This document shows, piece by piece, positions 3,685 to 35,940 of a stretch of DNA of 64,000 nucleotides. Source of the stretch: Planctomycetota bacterium (lineage in GTDB: Bacteria > Planctomycetota > SZUA-567 > H5-PLA8); NCBI GenBank assembly GCA_038227875.1, contig JBBRPR010000033.1, positions 1-64,000 on the forward strand, written 5' to 3'. The notes under the pieces were generated by a model that saw only the letters and a list, made by a program, of their open reading frames with translations, was not told where the DNA came from and did not search any database. Within the stretch, counting starts at the first letter, position 1. Each line of letters opens with the position of its first letter. The position numbers and the translations under genes were made by a program.

Positions 3685-3743
3685 CGCGTCATGTTCGAAG
3701 TGTTGATCTTTAACCATCAGGCCAATTGGCCTGAAGGTCCGCG

Positions 3744-21641: not shown

Positions 21642-21728
21642 ACGTCTAACGACGACGGGTCGGAATGTCGAATGTTGAAAAATGCGCCGCATGCAAGGGC
21701 GCTTTTTCCATTGGCGTGACTGAATTAT

Positions 21729-21915
21729 CCGCGAGGGGTGGCCCGGCCCCTCGGGCCGGGTTGCGTTAGCAACAAGAAGCTCTAGGACGGAACCACCCAT
21801 TCGCAATAGACAGCCGACTTCGGATCGCTCGCGGACGATCGTTTCCACTCCTCGAAGTAACCATTGTCTGGAGCTGTTGCGAAGCGACCCGCCCAGTTGG
21901 GACCACCCCTCGCGG
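21729..21915. mobile_element. MITE/REPIN-like element, family A (~190 bp, non-coding)
   Basis: Ends CCGCGAGGGGTGG/CCACCCCTCGCGG are perfect 13-bp inverted repeats extending imperfectly to about 50 bp; related to 32441 and 34127; lies between convergent genes. Confidence 0.7.
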
Positions 21916-29726: not shown

Positions 29727-30935
29727 TTATCCGCGGCGGCGGTGATGGAGGGCAGCGCGTTCGCGTTCGCCTTTTTCGAACTTCTCAAACTCTTCGCGCG
29801 CCGGTTCCGCACCTTTGTTGTCCTTGCTGAACTTTTCGCGGAAATCCTTCCACTTCGCCTGGCGTTCGGCGGACAGCTCGCTCGACCAGTGCTTGCCGCC
29901 TTCGCCGCGCAGAGCCGCGAGGCCCGAACCTGCTCCTGCACCGGCCCCAGATCCCGCCGTGGACCGCGCATGCGAGGCCGCCGTGCTGGAACCCGACCCG
30001 GAAGTGCCGGTGCTGTTCGGTTTGGTCACCGAGCGTTCAGTATTGCCGCTATAATCCCACTTACCGTTGGATTCCTTGGTCAGCTCGCCAGTGCGGTCGA
30101 TTGTTTCCGTCTTGCCGTTGGCGAACGTCTTGGTCACCTGCTCGTCGACCGTCTTCGTGCCGTTGCCGTTGTTGACGACTTCGGTATCGCGGTTGGTGGT
30201 CCAGGTGGATTCTTTGCCGTTGGGACCTTTCGCATCGCCGGTCGTCGTGCTGGTGCGGTCGAAGCCGTTGCTCGTCCGCGTTTGTTCGCCGGTGGTGTTG
30301 CGGGTGATCTCGGCGCCGTTGCTCACGTTCGTGTCGCTGCTGCGCGTGAAGTCATAGCCGTCGGCGGTCTTCTGCGTCGTGCCGTTGCGGTTGGTGGTCC
30401 AATCGGTTTCCTTCCCGGCGGCGTTCTTGTGTTCGCCAGTCGTCGTCGAATTCCACGTCCCGTCGCCCTGTCCATCGCGGTGCGACGCGCCGGTGGTCTG
30501 TGTCTGCGACGATCCGCCGTTGGAGTTCGTGGTGTTCGATTCGCGCGTCCAGTCGTGTCCATCGCTGGTCTTGGTCACCGTGCCCGAACTGTCGGTCGTC
30601 CACGTCTTGCCGGTCTGATTATTCGTCGCCGTCGTCGTGCCGCTCCAGGTGTGGCCGTCGGGCGTTTTCTGAACGGTGCCGCTGCTGTCGGCCGACCACG
30701 AATGTCCGTTGTTCTCGTTGGTCGTGGTGCTGGTCGCCTGCCAGGATTTGGTGCCATCGGGATTGGTGATCCACTGTCCGCTGGCGGTGGTGTTGAATTC
30801 TGTCGTCGTCGTGGTCGATCCATCGGAGCTGTCGGCCGCGCGCGCACTCGTGAGCAGCGATGCGAACGCCACGGCAAGCGCTGCCGAGGTGATGCGTTTA
30901 ATCCAGCGTTGGAGTTTTGAGTTCTGTGGTTTCAT
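29727..30935 (-). CDS. secreted Thr/Ser/Gly/Asn-rich beta-hairpin repeat protein
   Basis: AAGGAGAGG RBS, signal peptide ending 'ARAA', recurring strand-turn units (DG/NG turns, periodic Trp). Confidence 0.85.
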   Translation of the reverse strand: MKPQNSKLQRWIKRITSAALAVAFASLLTSARAADSSDGSTTTTTEFNTTASGQWITNPDGTKSWQATSTTTNENNGHSWSADSSGTVQKTPDGHTWSGTTTATNNQTGKTWTTDSSGTVTKTSDGHDWTRESNTTNSNGGSSQTQTTGASHRDGQGDGTWNSTTTGEHKNAAGKETDWTTNRNGTTQKTADGYDFTRSSDTNVSNGAEITRNTTGEQTRTSNGFDRTSTTTGDAKGPNGKESTWTTNRDTEVVNNGNGTKTVDEQVTKTFANGKTETIDRTGELTKESNGKWDYSGNTERSVTKPNSTGTSGSGSSTAASHARSTAGSGAGAGAGSGLAALRGEGGKHWSSELSAERQAKWKDFREKFSKDNKGAEPAREEFEKFEKGERERAALHHRRRG

Positions 30936-31314
30936 CGGTTTAACCCTCTCCTTGGTGCGGTCTTTTAAGACACGTTTCGGACTGCGGTTAACTAAATGGC
31001 AAGCGCGGGACCAGCGCGCCTCAAGGTCAAAATTTTCCGCCACTACCGGCGCCCACGATTTGCATAAAGTATTGAAGCAGTAGGTACTTCCACTCGCCTA
31101 AGCCCCACACTATTTTTCTTCACCACCGTGCCACAAAGTTCATGCATTCCATTGCCGGGCGTCATTTTGTGGAATTGTCCTACGACGTGCGGCGACCTGC
31201 GGCGACGTGCGGCAGTGCGCGCGAGTGCATCAAACCACACGCGATTTTTCTCAGAGGTCGCCGGGCTTCGCCTTGTATAGTTGCCTCAAGATTTCCGAAT
31301 TGTGGGAGAACTCG

Positions 31315-32418
31315 ATGACCACCGCGCTGCGCATACTGCTCGCGACCGCCTGCCTCTGTTCGCTTCGCACATTTTCTGGCGAGGCCGACGGGTCGCTCAA
31401 ACAAAAGGGAGAACGCGTCGAAGAATTGCTCAGCGCGTTTGTTCCCGCGAGTGGACCTGGCGCGGCGATTCTGGTGATTCAGGACGGGAAGAAGATTTAC
31501 GAGAAGTGCCACGGCGACGCCAACATCGCCGAGAAAATTCCGATCACGCCGGAGACCAACTTCGAACTCGCCTCCGATTCCAAACAGTTCACCGCGATGG
31601 CGATCATGATGCTGAAAGAGGAGGGAAAGCTGGAGTACTCCGATCACCTCTCGAAATTCCTTCCCGAATTCAAAGACGTCGGCCGTGAAATCACCATCGC
31701 GCATCTGCTTCATCACACCGCGGGGCTGAAGGATTACTTCGACGTCTGGGACAAACACGGCAAGGGCGAGATCACCGCGCGGCGCGTGATGGAACTGCTG
31801 GCCAAACAAGACAAGCTGCGCTTCGCGCCCGGTGAAAAGTACGAGTACAGCAACTCCGGCTACATGGTCCTGGCGCAGGTGATCGAAAAAGTCTCCGGCA
31901 AACGCTACGCGGAGTTCCTGCGTGAGAAAATTTTCGCGCCGCTGAAAATGGAGGACTCCGAAGTCTTCGACGAGACGCACCCGAAGATCAAACACGGCGC
32001 CGCCTGCTACAAACACACGCGCGAAGGCTGGGAGAAAATCAAGCACGACGATTGGGACAACGTCTACGGCGACGGCAGCATCCGCTCCACGCTCAACGAT
32101 CTGTATAAATGGGACCAGGCGCTCTACACCGAGAAACTGATCAAAGCCAGCACGCTGGAAACAGCCTTCACGTCCGGAAAGCTGAACGATGGCTCCGACA
32201 CCGGTTACGGTTTCGGCTGGGAGATCGACACGTACCATCGCGCCACTGTTGTTTCGCACAGCGGCGAGTGGCTCGGCTACGAGAATTTCATCTACCGCAT
32301 CCCCGAATGGAATTTCACCGTGATCTTTCTATCCAACGGCAGCTTCGCGAAGCAATCCGACAAGTTGATCGGCGAAGTAGTGCGCGTATTTTATCCAAAA
32401 GGAAAGGGGAAAGAGTGA
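31315..32418 (+). CDS. serine hydrolase, beta-lactamase class C/PBP-like family, secreted
   Basis: SxxK (SDSK), 'LLHHTAG', YSN, HSG motifs; GGAG RBS. Confidence 0.92.
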   Translation: MTTALRILLATACLCSLRTFSGEADGSLKQKGERVEELLSAFVPASGPGAAILVIQDGKKIYEKCHGDANIAEKIPITPETNFELASDSKQFTAMAIMMLKEEGKLEYSDHLSKFLPEFKDVGREITIAHLLHHTAGLKDYFDVWDKHGKGEITARRVMELLAKQDKLRFAPGEKYEYSNSGYMVLAQVIEKVSGKRYAEFLREKIFAPLKMEDSEVFDETHPKIKHGAACYKHTREGWEKIKHDDWDNVYGDGSIRSTLNDLYKWDQALYTEKLIKASTLETAFTSGKLNDGSDTGYGFGWEIDTYHRATVVSHSGEWLGYENFIYRIPEWNFTVIFLSNGSFAKQSDKLIGEVVRVFYPKGKGKE

Positions 32419-32440
32419 TGCCGAATGCCGAATGCCGAAT
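32418..32440 (+). repeat. heptamer tandem repeat (ATGCCGA)x3
   Basis: ATGCCGAATGCCGAATGCCGAAT directly before the family A repeat. Confidence 0.8.
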
Positions 32441-32822
32441 AACCCGCAAGGGGTGGCCCGGCCCAGAGCGGAGCGACGGGCCGGGTTGCGTGAGCAACAA
32501 GAAGGTGCAGGACAGACACACCCCTGCCGAAAATTCATCAGACTTCGAAGCGTGCCGGACGTGCACGGGAATGCGATCGGGTTGAGCGCGGTCGAGAGAG
32601 AATTCAGAATTCAGATTGATGAATCCGTGAGCGGGAATCGAGGCTCGCCTCTCAAGTCATCGCCAAAATCCGCGAGGGGTGAGCAACGCGAACAAGAACC
32701 TCGTCGGTGCGATGGATCAGTCCAAGACGGTCCCGAGAACATGGAAGGTTGCTTCGCTCACTCCGTGCGTAGCCAGTGCCGAGCGAAGCGCAGCACATCT
32801 AGCCCAACGCTATCGGCGACAA

Positions 32823-32893
32823 AGCCCAGGGTTGCGCCGCAGCGCTACCCTGGGTCACGATTCACCCTGCGCGGAGCAACTCTGAAGGAGTTG
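32823..32893. repeat. REP-like palindromic unit, family C
   Basis: CCCAGGGT-TGCGCCGCAGCGCT-ACCCTGGG hairpin followed by a CAACTC-TGAAG-GAGTTG hairpin; single copy here. Confidence 0.55.
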
Positions 32894-33136
32894 TGGCTTC
32901 CAAGTCGATGGCGCGACCCATAACCCTGAGAATCCTTCGCGATTAAATCCAATTCCAATAAAATAATCCCAACTTTTCGTCGTCCATAACTCATTCACTC
33001 TCAATATCTAACGACACACACCCAATATCAGATTAGGAATCTATTCGGTTTTGTCTTGATCTTCGGTCTATTCATGATGTATACTCCAATTGTCAGGTTC
33101 TCAACCGGAGGACCTATTTATAAGGAGTAGGTTGCC

Positions 33137-34054
33137 ATGCAACCCCTTCACGAAACTGCGGCTCAGTCCGCGAACAACAGCAACACCGGGGCTCCCGCCG
33201 AATCAGCCCCTCAGACACAACCGGTCTTGGAAAACGGACCGGCATTACCGATCCACGCCTCGGCGGCGATTTTCCCGCCGATGCGCGAGTCGGAGTTCGA
33301 CGCCCTCGTCGCCGACATCCGCGAAAAGGGCCAGTTGGAGGCCGTCTGGCTCTGGCAAGGTCAGGTCATCGACGGACGCCATCGAGTTCTGGCGTGCCAG
33401 AAACTCGGTCTGACGCCGAAGACGCGCGAGTGGGACGGCCAGGGTTCGCTGCTCGAATTCATCGTCTCCGCGAACCTGCGGCGGCGGCACCTGAAAGAGA
33501 ATCAGCGGGCAATGATTGGTGCGCGGATGTTGCCGCAGTTCGAAGAAGAGGCACTGTTGCGGAAGAAGTCGGGAGGTGTGGTGGATTTTAACCATCCCGC
33601 AAATTTGCGGTATGGTACAGCCGCCCACCAAGTGGCTCTTCTACTTTCTGTGTCAGAAAGAAGTATTACATCCGCGAAGAAACTTCGTGAACACGGAATT
33701 CCTTCACTGATCTCTCGTGTTGACGAAGGCAAACTCGCGGTCTCGACGGCGGCGAAGATCGCGGAGTTTCCTCCGGAGGAGCAGCAGCAGTTGCTGAAAC
33801 TGAGCAAGCCGGAGCTTGGCAAAATTGTGCGGCCGAAAGAAAAGGTGTTGGTGAAACCTCCGCTCCCGAAGGAAGCGGTGACGACGGGCGCACCCGCGTA
33901 CCGGTCGTTCTCCGGAGAACTATCGTACACACCGGAGAATGGCTACCGGCTGAAATTGTCGCGCGACCGGTACAAGCGGCAGTTCCGCGAAGCCGCGCGC
34001 AACGACGCGTTCATCGAAAAGCTGGTGCACGGCATGTTCGTGTATGTCGAGTGA
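33137..34054 (+). CDS. ParB/Srx-like N-terminal-domain protein (phage/MGE type)
   Basis: 'IFPPM...FDALVADIREKGQLEAV...IDGRHR..AC..LG...SANLRRRHL..NQRAMI'; HTH-like middle; TAAGGAG RBS. Confidence 0.85.
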   Translation: MQPLHETAAQSANNSNTGAPAESAPQTQPVLENGPALPIHASAAIFPPMRESEFDALVADIREKGQLEAVWLWQGQVIDGRHRVLACQKLGLTPKTREWDGQGSLLEFIVSANLRRRHLKENQRAMIGARMLPQFEEEALLRKKSGGVVDFNHPANLRYGTAAHQVALLLSVSERSITSAKKLREHGIPSLISRVDEGKLAVSTAAKIAEFPPEEQQQLLKLSKPELGKIVRPKEKVLVKPPLPKEAVTTGAPAYRSFSGELSYTPENGYRLKLSRDRYKRQFREAARNDAFIEKLVHGMFVYVE

Positions 34055-34072
34055 TGGCGCTGTAACGTCCGG

Positions 34073-34115
34073 GCGGCTCGCGGAAAATGGCGAATCAATA
34101 TTTTCCGCGAGCCGC
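34073..34115 (+). terminator. 16-bp hairpin after the ParB-like gene
   Basis: GCGGCTCGCGGAAAAT/ATTTTCCGCGAGCCGC; no U-tail, so it may belong to the repeat instead. Confidence 0.5.
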
Positions 34116-34259
34116 AGTCCTTGAGCGCCCGTCGCTCCGCTCTGGGCCGGTCCACCCCTCGCGGGTTGATCCCCGCTCCCCGGATTCATCATTCATCAAT
34201 CATCGTTCTGAATTTGTCCTCATCATCACTCTGAATTCTGAATTTCTTGGGCAGCGCGC

Positions 34260-35144
34260 TCAGTAGCTCTCAGGCTGATTGGCCGTGGCAATGCCGACCG
34301 CGATGCCTACAAGCACGGCGATGAAAATTAACCGCACCACCGCAATCTGCCACGGTTTGAGCCGCTTCACGAACGGCAATTCGGCGATCCAGGCCGCAAA
34401 CGCGGCGGCGGTGAGCAGCACGGCACAGCTGAGCGGGACGTCGGTGAGAAAATGGCCAAGTACTACATAGAGAAACCCGAGCGGCGCAACAACCATCGAC
34501 ATGCCGCGCGCGAGAGGAAATTTGGGGAACAAGAGCGAACCCACGAATATCGCGCCCGCGATCGCGGTCAGCGTGCCGCACAGCATTGCATATTTCGCGC
34601 CGCCGGAAAGCGAGATGACTCTGCTGGTTCCTACGACCACCACAAAGACCGCCGCCGCCGTATCGAAGCTCCGGTTGCGCCGCGCGATTGCGGCCCACGA
34701 TTCCCATTGCAGCAACAGCGCCGCGGAGATCGCGGGGACGAACGTCCAGACGTTCTCGGGTTGATTGCGGCGGATCGGCGTCAGCACCAGCCAGACGGCA
34801 ACGGCCGATATCACCGCGCGGAGCAGAAAAAGCGAAAAGCTGAATTTCGCGGCCGTCTTGTCGCTCCGCGCAGACATCGCATCCAGCGCCGCGATCAGGC
34901 CGAACGGCAACGCGAGATAGAACAGCCAGTGCGCCGCATCAATCGGCGGAAATTTAGGCAGCGTATCCTGGCCCCATTGTCCGGCCATGTACGCCAGCAT
35001 GCAGCCGAGGCCCGCTCCGAAGCTCATGCGCGCGGACAGGTCCTGCGTGTTGATCGTCTTGCGGTCCGTGAGCCAAAACGGCAACAACACCGCCACTACA
35101 ATGGCGCACGGAATTCCAACGACGTAGGCAATGAGTTGAATCAT
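34260..35144 (-). CDS. integral membrane hypothetical protein (~9-10 TM)
   Basis: Continuous hydrophobic helices; co-oriented downstream of yceI. Confidence 0.75.
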   Translation of the reverse strand: MIQLIAYVVGIPCAIVVAVLLPFWLTDRKTINTQDLSARMSFGAGLGCMLAYMAGQWGQDTLPKFPPIDAAHWLFYLALPFGLIAALDAMSARSDKTAAKFSFSLFLLRAVISAVAVWLVLTPIRRNQPENVWTFVPAISAALLLQWESWAAIARRNRSFDTAAAVFVVVVGTSRVISLSGGAKYAMLCGTLTAIAGAIFVGSLLFPKFPLARGMSMVVAPLGFLYVVLGHFLTDVPLSCAVLLTAAAFAAWIAELPFVKRLKPWQIAVVRLIFIAVLVGIAVGIATANQPESY

Positions 35145-35370
35145 ATATTTTTAGAACGACGCCGAATGCCAGTGAGGATTAAGCCCAAGCGAAACCGCAT
35201 CGCTCTCGATGAGTGGCCCGGCACGGATAATTTTGAATTGCTTCGGTGACAACAATTCAAAATTAAGAATTCAAAATTATCCGTGCCAGCCTCCGCCGTA
35301 TTCAACACGCATCGAACGTACTCAACGCGTGCTCAATTTCGACATTCGACATTCCTCTCTCGACATTCCA

Positions 35371-35940
35371 CTACTTGACCGCTTCCACCGCGACGGTCAG
35401 CTGCACATCGTCGCCGATCATGGCGGGCATGAAGTTCATGCCGTAATCGGAGCGCTTGATCGTGAACGTGCCTTCGTAGCCGATGTGCGTGCCCATCTTC
35501 GGGTCCGACATCGCGCCGGTCTTCACGAACGTCACCTTGATCGACTTGGTCACGCCGTGGAGCGTCAGGTCGCCGGTGATATCGAGAGCGCCTTCTTCCT
35601 TGCCTTTCTCGACGGTCTTGCTCTTAAAGGTGATCGTCGGGAACTGGACGGCGTCGAAAAAGTCGGCTTTCTTCAGATGCTGGTCGCGCTTGGGCTCGTG
35701 CGTGTCGACGTTGTCGGACTTCAATTCGACTTCCACCGAACTGCCCGCCGGATTGGCATCGTCGACGACGATCGTGCCGGTCGGTTCGTTGAAGCGGCCA
35801 TAGGTGTTGCTGGTGTTCATATGCTTGATCTTGAAGATCACAAACGAATGAACGGGGTCGAGCTTGTACGTGTCGGCGGCATGAACCAGCGGGATGCCCG
35901 CGAGCAGAACAGTGGCCAGCAGCCAGGTCTTCGTCTTCAT
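35371..35940 (-). CDS. yceI: YceI family polyisoprenoid-binding protein
   Basis: 'YKLDPVHS...F.IKH', 'RDQHLK..DFFD..QFPTITFKS', 'GDLTLHGVTK', 'IKRSDYG'; GGAGG RBS. Confidence 0.93.
   Translation of the reverse strand: MKTKTWLLATVLLAGIPLVHAADTYKLDPVHSFVIFKIKHMNTSNTYGRFNEPTGTIVVDDANPAGSSVEVELKSDNVDTHEPKRDQHLKKADFFDAVQFPTITFKSKTVEKGKEEGALDITGDLTLHGVTKSIKVTFVKTGAMSDPKMGTHIGYEGTFTIKRSDYGMNFMPAMIGDDVQLTVAVEAVK

Follow-up and report, generated by a model that had tools for sequence, protein, structure and literature searches.

In composite or MITE-bounded cargo transposons and in cargo elements derived from IS200/IS605, a small repeat lies inverted at both ends of a gene and no transposase is encoded inside; Y1 transposition, as in IS200/IS605, yields no target duplication, and IS elements targeting REP sequences exist as well. 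REPINs, as described together with RAYTs in PMC3116915 and PMC3337134, are short, extragenic and hairpin-forming, occur as single arms and inverted doublets in dozens of copies at gene ends, and lack target duplications. Orphan proteins of the ParB/ParB-CTPase fold, as portrayed in PMC12704722, combine a ParB-N-like domain with an HTH domain in absence of a ParA partner; their relatives are often phage-borne or located on other mobile elements, in some cases as fusions to DNA methyltransferases. ParB-fold proteins with no partition role are represented by KorB/OB of RK2 and BisD-bisS of ICEclc (PMC11790492, PMC12409273).

The window analyzed here (64,000 nucleotides of contig JBBRPR010000033.1 from a Planctomycetota bacterium, assembly GCA_038227875.1) harbours a segment (32441–34167, here termed the cassette) in which inverted REP-like repeats surround a ParB-like gene. 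In the preliminary description it was taken for a cargo-loaded, REP-bounded gene-mobilising unit. By contrast, the reading favoured here with moderate confidence distinguishes two objects, i.e., an old ParB-like module and small repeats added later. Region 32419–34262 is a spacer which separates two convergent housekeeping-type genes and holds these two separate kinds of object (Table 1).

Table 1. Features at the ParB-like locus and the related short element of the window (positions within the window; strand)
Feature	Position	Strand	Remarks
Complete REP-A doublet (REPIN-like), 187 bp	21729..21915	.	no cargo; between two genes
Serine hydrolase gene, upstream flank	31207..32418	+	Pfam Beta-lactamase family PF00144, E 1.9e-63; converges on cassette
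Heptamer array, ATGCCGA x3.3	32418..32440	+	immediately 3' of hydrolase stop codon
REP-A arm 1	32441..32560	+	nhmmer 32442-32551, E 3.4e-20; first 41 nt = left inverted repeat
Second REP-A-like arm	32596..32750	+	orientation of arm 1; core CCGCGAGGGGTG; heptamer-like outer flank; hairpin deleted
REP-B unit	32781..32899	+	repeat family unrelated to REP-A, 17 copies
Conserved AT-rich module leader	32947..33136	+	distal box ATCCAATTCCAATAAAATAATCC, promoter-like site, 5'-UTR hairpin, AGGAG RBS
Orphan ParB-fold gene, 305 aa	33137..34054	+	no parA
26-nt near-palindrome ACCATCCCGCAAATTTGCGGTATGGT	33591..33616	.	in linker codons; putative cognate site of the protein
Module terminal hairpin	34073..34115	+	perfect 16-bp stem, loop of 11 nt, T run absent
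REP-A arm 3, inverted	34127..34215	-	terminal 41 nt (34127-34167) = right inverted repeat
Heptamer-like arrays	34184..34245	-	3' tail of convergent membrane-protein gene
Membrane-protein gene, 294 aa, downstream flank	34260..35144	-	without Pfam family; converges on cassette

Genes neighbouring the cassette encode the beta-lactamase-family hydrolase, the membrane protein, YceI and a DUF255 thioredoxin-like protein. Neither ParA nor a transposase, integrase or invertase is found among the neighbour genes, confirming the reported absence of parA and transposase near the ParB-like gene. The membrane-protein gene has distant matches only (26–32 % identity), which come from two of the 16 genomes of the family and gave no orthologous site for comparison. 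Contigs of four runs over 30800–35800 break at the repeats, and none joins across 32441–34167 or 32947–34116; an empty site was not found. The only Rfam match over 32300–34400 (snoU54, E 0.59, far below threshold) was taken as chance. Heptamer repeats were said to border the cassette on both outer sides and are present directly upstream as well as downstream (34184–34208 and 34230–34244). Strict arrays of three or more GAATNNN units number 79 genome-wide versus 0.26 expected, with many of the listed (GAATNNN)x3 arrays being located directly 3' of stop codons; the heptamer array is a gene-tail feature throughout the genome and lies outside any mobile unit.

The 41-nt repeats at both ends (32441–32481 and 34127–34167) are 95 % complementary (39 of 41 positions) and 1645 nt apart, as originally noted. 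At up to three mismatches the 41-mer occurs twice in the window and in none of 100 shuffles, and the genome search retrieved the full 41-mer from two places only in the 9.34-Mb assembly, both bounding the cassette. This inverted repeat simply corresponds to the outer ends of two REP-A arms (1 and 3); both belong to the family of the 187-bp element, are inverted to each other and face outwards, just as had been recognized. The REP-A hairpin (GGCCCGGCCC..GGGCCGGG) is readable directly in the sequence, with the loop of arm 1 being a private 13-nt variant. Since this variant (AGAGCGGAGCGAC), of which the genome holds three copies (arms 1 and 3 and a degenerate single arm on contig C6), is common to both, arms 1 and 3 are sisters. 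The second REP-like unit is also real: positions 32618–32681 resemble the outer flank of the REPIN on contig C3 at 88 % (C3:102103–102039), with the core starting from 32670. Arm 3 is truncated within the hairpin stem, 11 nt past the module hairpin, and thereby lacks half of the stem, while its outer flank is typical and extends to ~34215 (34144–34214 match contig C19 at 90 %). The right arm is short by about 35–70 nt, and arms 1 and 3 do not form one clean split REPIN. No target-site duplication was seen at the cassette, in agreement with the earlier observation.

According to iterated nhmmer searches, REP-A is a REPIN-like foldback family of 38 arms at 29 loci, including ten inverted doublets of about 187–220 nt each. 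The doublet at 21729–21915, which had been described as a short non-coding relative with the same ends and further shared sequence, aligns to 32444–32561 (71 % over 119 nt) and has the same termini. REP-A doublets adjoin terminator hairpins, a heptamer array is located within 150 nt at 13 of the 29 REP-A loci, and none of the four doublets with located termini has a target duplication. REP-A thus shares the above traits of REPINs (PMC3116915, PMC3337134), its doublets measuring about 190 nt, but differs from the elements described there by its long arms (about 100 nt) and, at the present locus, by arms which stand 1.6 kb apart and enclose a gene plus further repeats.

REP-A elements are enriched beside ParB-like modules, far above the genome-wide expectation: at 6 of the 19 ParB-like loci a REP-A locus is found at a distance of at most 800 nt, and 8 of 48 REP-A core motifs (≤1 mismatch) are located within 1.5 kb of ParB-like loci as compared to 0.36 expected (9 of 361 versus 2.7 expected at ≤2 mismatches). 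Many copies with no enrichment at ParB-like genes were to count against the preliminary description; REP-A is, in fact, enriched there. Contigs C107, C19 and C3 have an identical arrangement of REPIN, 25-nt linker and module junction, and the junction homology in C107 begins at the outer terminus of the REPIN. This common junction indicates that REPIN and module were copied together at least twice. REP-A terminal motifs moreover occur within 130 nt 3' of the stop in 3 of the 12 3' flanks examined (C33, C107 and C88). A shared gene-end niche can explain part of the association, though perhaps not all of it; in view of the enrichment and the junction common to three loci, some coupling of REP and module would remain. 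REP-B lies 48 nt upstream of the module edge here and 15 nt upstream in the contig of a relative. A general attraction of REPs to ParB sites was considered and rejected: outside ParB-like genes, the 54 perfect palindrome sites examined have only one REP-B arm and no REP-A arm at a distance of up to 1.5 kb.

Two independent REP-A insertions, inverted at a distance of 1.7 kb by chance and bearing no link to the gene, would be compatible with the 29 loci of the family, with its preference for gene ends and with the fact that each arm adjoins a gene end or hairpin. Since, however, two of the three genomic copies of the 13-nt loop variant are these very arms, and REP-A is enriched at ParB-like loci, such a coincidence is quite unlikely.

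Five outward-facing pairs within 8 kb exist among the 48 REP-A core motifs (≤1 mismatch), i.e., short elements of 26 and 186 nt, two pairs corresponding to the cassette and a doubtful one of 5352 nt on contig C65. The genome contains eight Y1 transposase (PF01797) matches, with intact genes on contigs C72, C9, C79 and C3, none of which is flanked by REP-A on both sides; a RAYT enclosed by the repeat of the cassette, which the preliminary description had envisaged, was therefore not found in this assembly (88 % complete), at variance with the REPIN-RAYT systems portrayed in PMC3116915 and PMC3337134. The Y1 gene on contig C72 is 376 nt from a REP-A arm, which lies outside the different 91-nt inverted repeats of this gene. 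In case of REP-B, an inverted pair flanks a frameshifted Y1/RAYT gene (C43:8018–8358), which corresponds to the classical RAYT arrangement.

The whole 1727-nt segment has no second match in the genome, BLAST yielding partial matches only. This bears on the possibility that the inverted REP-A arms are the ends of a transposase-free composite, the ParB-like cargo of which is moved in trans by a Y1/RAYT protein. The termini are indeed inverted, outward-facing, of one family and share the private loop variant; the missing target duplication is what Y1 transposition would give; eight PF01797 matches are at hand; REP-A is enriched at ParB-like loci; and REPIN plus module were copied in one piece in C107, C19 and C3, with C107 having the REPIN terminus as left edge and a REP-like palindrome behind the gene, too. 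However, the putative composite occurs once, it contains two interior repeat units found in no other copy, the right arm is devoid of half its hairpin stem, and three of seven leader-bearing module copies (C11, C15 and C51) have unique sequence up to the module edge. Moreover, the closest paralog is at a dS of 0.48–0.69, no REP-A-flanked RAYT was detected and the C72 gene possesses its own, different 91-nt inverted repeats. REPINs that carry kilobase cargo are not known to us, and none turned up among the papers listed by a literature search on REPIN/RAYT cargo. Mobilisation in trans is therefore considered quite unlikely. As in composite or MITE-bounded cargo transposons, small repeats of the same family stand inverted at both ends of a gene, with neither transposase nor target duplication; unlike in these, the whole unit does not recur at other loci with different flanks. 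The idea of a cargo-loaded mobilising unit is thus not sustained, since the segment is unique, its interior holds unrelated repeats and paralog homology starts well inside, at 32947. Likewise, no other ParB paralog is bounded by the 41-mer, contrary to the expectation that paralogs are repeatedly enclosed by these repeats.

The unit shared with other loci is a self-contained module of 1.17 kb (32947–34116) composed of promoter leader, ParB-fold gene and terminal hairpin. The AT-rich promoter-like stretch and strong RBS noted earlier are present, with the promoter-like site (TTGATC-18-TATACT) at 33056–33085. The 16-bp hairpin behind the gene could also be verified (stem arms 34073–34088 and 34100–34115), and its stem is kept in the module copies on contigs C43, C32 and, in degraded form, C88. 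An integron cassette was ruled out, since the hairpin does not have the core sites of attC (consensus of GTTRRRY/RYYYAAC type) and the module has its own promoter. For the module, terminal inverted repeats of its own were likewise discounted, since its 5' box does not recur in inverted form 3' of the gene.

ParB-like modules are present in 15–19 dispersed copies (tblastn: protein on 17 contigs, leader on two further contig ends), and a profile search of the genome for more distant paralogs, as a possible source of the many palindrome variants, added none. The only gene that the surroundings of the 19 loci have in common is the ParB-like one. The leader is found at seven genomic places, each representing a ParB-like 5' end, and paralog homology begins at ATCCAATTCC in all seven leader-bearing copies. 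At the present locus this onset is 506 nt inside the left inverted repeat, and the upstream repeat is missing in C11, C15 and C51. Across 21 paralog pairs, dS is 0.34–1.69 and dN/dS 0.03–0.34; the paralogs are old and under purifying selection. Within the C33/C11/C107/C15 group, leader identity is 77–91 % as compared to 47–73 % identity at synonymous sites, such that the sharp module edge marks the end of constraint. With the nearest paralog at a dS of 0.48–0.69 while the arms differ at 2 of 41 positions, there is no recent sister copy. Scanning metagenomes for the 5' box of the module retrieved a single locus, on contig L104 of a relative, which has the same module edge as the leader-bearing copies of the genome. 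In 40 relatives, 0–2 distant matches to the ParB-like family were obtained per genome, and among the papers listed by a literature search on ParB-like paralogs in Planctomycetes none dealt with this family. These orphan ParB-fold proteins have expanded specifically in this lineage. Where multiple copies occur in other genomes, they reside within repeats of 4–6.5 kb or more, as opposed to the 1.17-kb unit here.

Alternatively, the ParB-like module may itself be mobile, by an unknown route or by means of its own protein, inserting beside or into REP-type hairpins at gene ends, and may here have landed in a REP-A doublet, thereby splitting it. Unrelated flanks at 19 loci fit this notion, as does the location of the module 15–48 nt from the end of a REP unit (of two unrelated families) at C33, L104, C107, C19 and C3, the right REP-A arm being cut 11 nt behind the module hairpin, and the fact that C24:99022 of the genome and contig L104 of the relative differ in presence/absence of the module next to an orthologous gene (89 % nt identity); IS elements targeting REP sequences would provide a precedent. 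On the other hand, the paralogs are old (dS of 0.34 or more) and selection explains the sharp edges. Neither terminal inverted repeats nor target duplication nor recombinase were found, the two REP-A pieces do not make a complete doublet, the C107, C19 and C3 copies may represent a single event, and the L104 comparison covers one side only. On balance, insertion of a mobile module is regarded as unlikely.

An inversion substrate, flipping the gene segment by site-specific or homologous recombination in the manner of a DNA switch, could in principle be formed by inverted repeats which are 95 % alike and 1.6 kb apart, and contigs of run X1 indeed contain joints of opposite strands (32624/34180 and 32629/34179). 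These joints, however, reproduce another locus, namely the C19 REPIN flank, and no invertase is encoded nearby. Since the promoter resides inside the segment, inversion would change nothing obvious. A switch is therefore hardly credible.

The 305-aa protein comprises a disordered N-terminus, a ParB-N-like domain (DGRHR, NLRRRHL), an HTH domain and a small C-terminal domain. Its assignment as a ParB/Srx-domain protein holds with respect to fold, but not to Pfam, where no family matched. Neither Pfam nor NCBIfam provided a match even at E=10, and PADLOC matched no family, whereas ParB-like PHROG families match at 9e-11 and a profile search against PDB sequences reached ParB at E 0.003. The AlphaFold (AF2) model (pLDDT 82.7) has ParB, Spo0J, Noc, pNOB8 ParB and KorB as top Foldseek matches (E 1e-5 to 3e-3). 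The DGRHRxxA motif aligns with GERRWRA of Caulobacter ParB, and D79, G80, R81, R83, N113, R116, R117, Q123 and R124 are invariant in 51 sequences. The genome contains three other genes with PF02195 (ParB_N), none of them belonging to this ParB-like family. Among 83 database relatives, three carry PF02195; relatives of the protein often belong to phages or further mobile elements, some are fusions with DNA methyltransferases, and PF05063, PF01555 and PF05869 are among the hits. We infer a DNA-binding protein of the ParB/KorB/Noc type which has no ParA partner, in contrast to the ParABS partition system with its adjacent ParA ATPase. It shares the ParB-N-like domain, the HTH domain and the lack of a ParA partner with the orphan proteins treated in PMC12704722, yet differs from those described there in falling below Pfam ParB_N detection and in forming 15–19 solo chromosomal copies in one lineage.

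A different palindrome occupies the same linker codons in 8 of the 11 paralogs examined; none was reported for C36 and C10, and the linker was not located in C107. The inner palindrome CCGCAAATTTGCGG has seven perfect copies in the genome (about 0.04 expected from base composition), with extended ACC..GGT arms and one copy being inside the gene. The palindrome pattern class occurs 40 times in the genome versus none in 38 of 40 relatives. The site class comprises 235 members in 54 inner variants genome-wide, and several of the putative sites lie just upstream of genes. The protein may read the 26-nt palindrome in its own linker and the six other perfect copies of the 14-nt core; the number of inner variants as opposed to about ten intact paralogs speaks against this. 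Such putative sites, scattered and with one in the own gene, would be reminiscent of KorB/OB and BisD-bisS as presented in PMC11790492 and PMC12409273. The dispersed palindrome as such is present here, as in KorB/Noc-like systems, the site of the protein being putative. Differences from KorB and BisD as described in these reports are the large number of paralogs, with palindrome variants that differ between them, and the size of the site class; binding, CTP dependence and regulation are putative here.

Taken together, the inverted repeats frame, rather than carry, a gene of an old, many-copy family, and the cassette therefore probably represents a pile-up of small repeats and not a new gene-moving element. 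In the proposed course of events, one member of the stand-alone ParB-fold family (32947–34116) would have been present first, and at least four small non-coding repeat units would have arrived later, i.e., two direct REP-A arms, one REP-B and one truncated inverted REP-A behind the gene hairpin. While anatomy, copy numbers, ages, selection and enrichment are observed, this order of arrival is inferred, as are a passive role of the repeats and binding of the protein to the palindrome. Arms 1 and 3 could then be derived from one REPIN-type doublet with disrupted interior, or one arm may be a local copy of the other. The pile-up is attributed to REP-type units settling at gene ends beside terminator-like hairpins and heptamer tails; in addition, these units seem to be attracted to some extent by ParB-like module edges. 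A mechanistic coupling of ParB-like modules and REP-type foldback elements, via transduction or an integration hotspot, is given a slim chance. Under the first form, a ParB-like module with no transposase inside may now and then be transduced by paired REP-A arms; under the second, the protein, once loaded at the palindrome within its gene, may give rise to, or catalyse, a hotspot for REP-A and REP-B integration.

A REP-bounded gene mover would add a new class to the mobile DNA of bacteria; for such a claim the present evidence is insufficient. Two inverted REP arms around a gene do not suffice, which advises caution for similar calls based on inverted repeats alone; the proper test is whether the whole unit recurs and how old the cargo is in comparison with the arms. 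What stands out is the occurrence of REP units of two unrelated families within 15–48 nt of module 5' edges, seen at several loci here and also in another organism. Should the coupling be true, for which the prospects are poor, this site would capture a momentary state of a novel, transposase-free mode of moving genes in Planctomycetota. If the proteins indeed read the palindromes, the family would amount to a KorB/Noc-like network with many channels for DNA marking or regulation on the chromosome.

The 41-nt inverted repeat bounding the cassette at 32441-34167 is real: its arms are 95 % complementary and separated by 1645 nt, and a search for the 41-mer with up to 3 mismatches returned 2 matches in the window versus 0 in each of 100 shuffles. 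Throughout the assembly (9.34 Mb, 176 contigs, 59.6 % G+C; the window is contig C33), it is present at just these two positions. All features named in the preliminary description were found again in the sequence, including a second REP-like unit, i.e., a REP-A-like arm, and a 187-bp element with the same termini as the cassette and 71 % identity to its left arm across 119 nt. The locus is best read as a nest, in which an old, selected, stand-alone ParB-fold gene occupies the spacer between convergent genes and REP-type units came to lie around it later. The 41-nt repeat itself is the paired termini of two sister arms of the REP-A family.

Positions and properties of features in the window, and of module copies and linker palindromes on other contigs (C-numbers)
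Feature	Position	Properties
Inverted repeat, left arm	32441-32481	
Inverted repeat, right arm	34127-34167	
Heptamer arrays	32418-32440; 34184-34245; near 21660-21680	
Short element	21729-21915	187 bp
Remainder of REP-A arm 1	to about 32560	
Second REP-A-like arm	32596-32750	orientation as arm 1; heptamer-like outer flank typical; hairpin lost
REP-B unit	32781-32899	family unrelated to REP-A; 17 genomic copies
Gene leader	32947-33136	190 nt
Promoter-like site	33056-33085	TTGATC-18-TATACT
AGGAG site		present, with the 305-aa ORF
ORF	33137-34054	305 aa
Terminal hairpin	34073-34115	16 bp
Palindrome class sites	33591-33616; about 3713-3738	
Full-length copies	C33, C11, C107, C15, C31, C14	n=6
Truncated or stop-codon copies	C10, C3, C39, C27, C38	n=5
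Copies at contig ends		n=8
Linker palindrome	C33 (window gene)	14 nt, CCGCAAATTTGCGG; 7 perfect genomic copies
Linker palindrome	C36	16 nt; 10 perfect genomic copies
Linker palindrome	C15	18 nt; 11 perfect genomic copies
Linker palindrome	C31	16 nt; 15 perfect genomic copies

The heptamer arrays reported at both outer edges of the cassette are present, but not as marks of an element; (GAATGTC)n-type tandem heptamers are a genome-wide feature (79 strict arrays versus 0.26 expected from base composition). Among the arrays listed, many start directly or a few bases after a stop codon. Those at the cassette belong, as tails, to the convergent genes on either side, and the arrays as a whole look like a lineage-specific 3'-tail element.

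Iterated nhmmer searches with the left arm as query retrieved 38 REP-A arms at 29 loci, 10 of which are inverted doublets of ~190-220 nt. Judged from its anatomy, REP-A is a REPIN-like foldback element; its hairpin, GGCCCGGCCC-CTC-GGGCCGGG, is rich in G+C, and its termini are close to CCGCGAGGGGTGG in sequence. Most often it lies beside terminator hairpins at gene ends, and it shows no target duplication. Both cassette arms carry a 13-nt loop variant found elsewhere only in a degenerate solitary arm on C6 and are therefore considered sisters. Of the two, the right one is truncated: 11 nt past the terminal hairpin of the gene, homology breaks off within the REP-A hairpin stem, in its 5' half.

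The 506 nt from the left terminus to the gene leader are not unique DNA, containing the remainder of the first REP-A arm, the second arm and a REP-B unit. In case of REP-B, an inverted pair surrounds a frameshifted Y1-transposase (RAYT-like) gene (C43:8018-8358, within C43:7870-8571, locus L021), which is the classical arrangement of RAYT systems. A RAYT flanked by the cassette repeat was searched for among the genome's 8 PF01797 matches, none of which is flanked by REP-A; at the RAYT on C72, a REP-A arm lies 376 nt off, but beyond the 91-nt inverted repeats of that gene, which are of a different kind. The latter gene (C72:35985-36715, locus L016) is intact and its repeats represent a third REP type, similar repeats flanking RAYT-like genes on C9 and C3.

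The protein was matched on 17 contigs (tblastn) and the leader alone at 2 further contig ends; module copies total 15-19. All ORFs lying up to 6 kb from the 19 loci were clustered, and no gene besides this one proved to be common to them. Similarity starts abruptly at ATCCAATTCCAATAAAATAATCC (32947 in the window) in all seven copies with conserved leader, three of which (C11, C15, C51) have unique sequence up to the module edge, and stops after the terminal hairpin at the 3' side. These edges define the recurring unit as 32947-34116, well within the inverted repeats. The preliminary description had proposed the cassette as a possible gene-mobilising unit. This reading is improbable; of the evidence that would define it, neither a second occurrence of the unit nor an empty site nor a cognate transposase was found. 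The assembly contains no recent copy of the composite, and the two arms (2 differences in 41 nt) resemble each other far more closely than the gene resembles any of its sister copies.

Across 21 paralog pairs (90-codon core), dN/dS ranges from 0.03 to 0.34 and dS from 0.34 to 1.69, the window copy differing from its nearest relatives by a dS of 0.48-0.69. In the C33/C11/C107/C15 group, the leader is 77-91 % identical versus 47-73 % at synonymous sites and is thus under selection. Within it lie a 5'-UTR hairpin, the stem of which varies by subfamily, and, ~110 nt upstream of the -35 hexamer, a distal AT-rich box that is conserved. The sharp 5' edge is the end of constraint, beyond which a co-duplicated neutral flank would have decayed, and is by itself no proof of a transposon end. 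Since 40 relatives contain only 0-2 distant matches each (identity ≤42 %), the expansion is lineage-specific among the genomes searched. Several paralogs (C33, C11, C36, C27, C4/C32) and locus L104, on a metagenome contig from a relative, are mosaics, suggesting that copies may have recombined: the window copy combines a C11-type N-terminal half with a C36-type linker and HTH and a C-terminus in common with C43/C88, while L104 has a C11/C15-type distal leader and a C36-type promoter and start. The C15 (40521-41645) and C14 (65917-66984) paralogs, as opposed to the others, carry tandem ACPEPVEG/ACPEPAEG-type peptide repeats in a disordered N-terminus.

The 305-aa protein has no match in Pfam or NCBIfam; in PHROGs it matches an unnamed family (5e-21) and ParB-like families (9e-11). 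An AlphaFold model (51-sequence alignment, pLDDT 82.7) matches ParB, Spo0J, Noc, pNOB8 ParB and KorB, and a profile comparison with PDB sequences aligned DGRHRxxA with GERRWRA of Caulobacter ParB. A few of 83 database relatives have PF02195 or a fusion to DNA methyltransferase domains. The canonical parB of the genome is a separate gene. Orphan ParB-fold proteins without ParA are described as common and often located on mobile elements (PMC12704722). Multicopy relatives in other genomes lie within repeats of 4-6.5 kb or more, whereas the copied unit here is a single gene.

REP-A is enriched near the ParB-like loci. A REP-A locus lies within 800 nt of 6 of the 19, and 8 of 48 REP-A core motifs (≤1 mismatch) fall within 1.5 kb of such loci versus 0.36 expected (with ≤2 mismatches, mostly chance matches, 9 of 361 versus 2.7). 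In C107, C19 and C3, the module follows a REPIN (inverted REP doublet) at one common junction, the right end of the REPIN being truncated alike in all and a 25-nt linker separating the two; in C107, homology begins at the outer terminus of the REPIN. Of 12 3' flanks examined, 3 have REP-A-type terminal motifs no more than 130 nt behind the gene. In L104 (1130-1575), REP-B is located 15 nt upstream of the module, behind a gene 89 % identical (nt) to C24:98333-99022, while unrelated AT-rich sequence follows in the present assembly (C24:99022 onward). This is a presence/absence difference directly after an orthologous gene, seen from one side, as the L104 contig ends before the other. Heptamer arrays are near 13 of 29 REP-A and 9 of 19 ParB-like loci (984 loci under a loose array definition); such a shared niche accounts for part of the association, not demonstrably for the whole. 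A general attraction of REPs to palindromic sites was not found. Beside the modules, another short palindrome (CCCCCC-TTTTCAA-GGGGGG and variants) is found repeatedly, namely in the 3' flanks of the copies on C43, C4 and C31 and in the linker of C107/C19/C3.

In 8 of 11 paralogs, a script identified a palindrome within the gene, each time in the same codons of the linker; none was reported for C36 and C10, and the C107 linker was not located. By eye, GCCGCCAATTGGCGGC was recognized at this position in C36. The sequence varies from paralog to paralog, and each listed version recurs in the genome, e.g., ~0.04 copies of CCGCAAATTTGCGG being expected from base composition versus 7 seen. Copies have extended ACC..GGT arms and often a neighbouring box, which inside the gene encodes GVVKSQH or GVVDFNH. 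The corresponding 26-nt class, ACC-N5-GC-(AAATTT or CAATTG)-GC-N5-GGT, comprises 235 sites with 54 inner variants (other 6-nt centres, 0-27), 46 of them within 70 nt of another member with a box like GGTCAAAAGCCAACAT in between. One version of the pattern, present 40 times in this genome, is absent from 38 of 40 relatives and has 1-2 occurrences in the remaining two. Among 49 perfect 14-nt palindromes with at least 4 copies, 6 are the in-gene sites of paralogs. Since variants outnumber paralogs and a profile search of the genome found no further paralogs, a reading of one protein per site is not established. Together with the association between REP elements and the module, these paralog-specific palindromes are the parts deserving more work.
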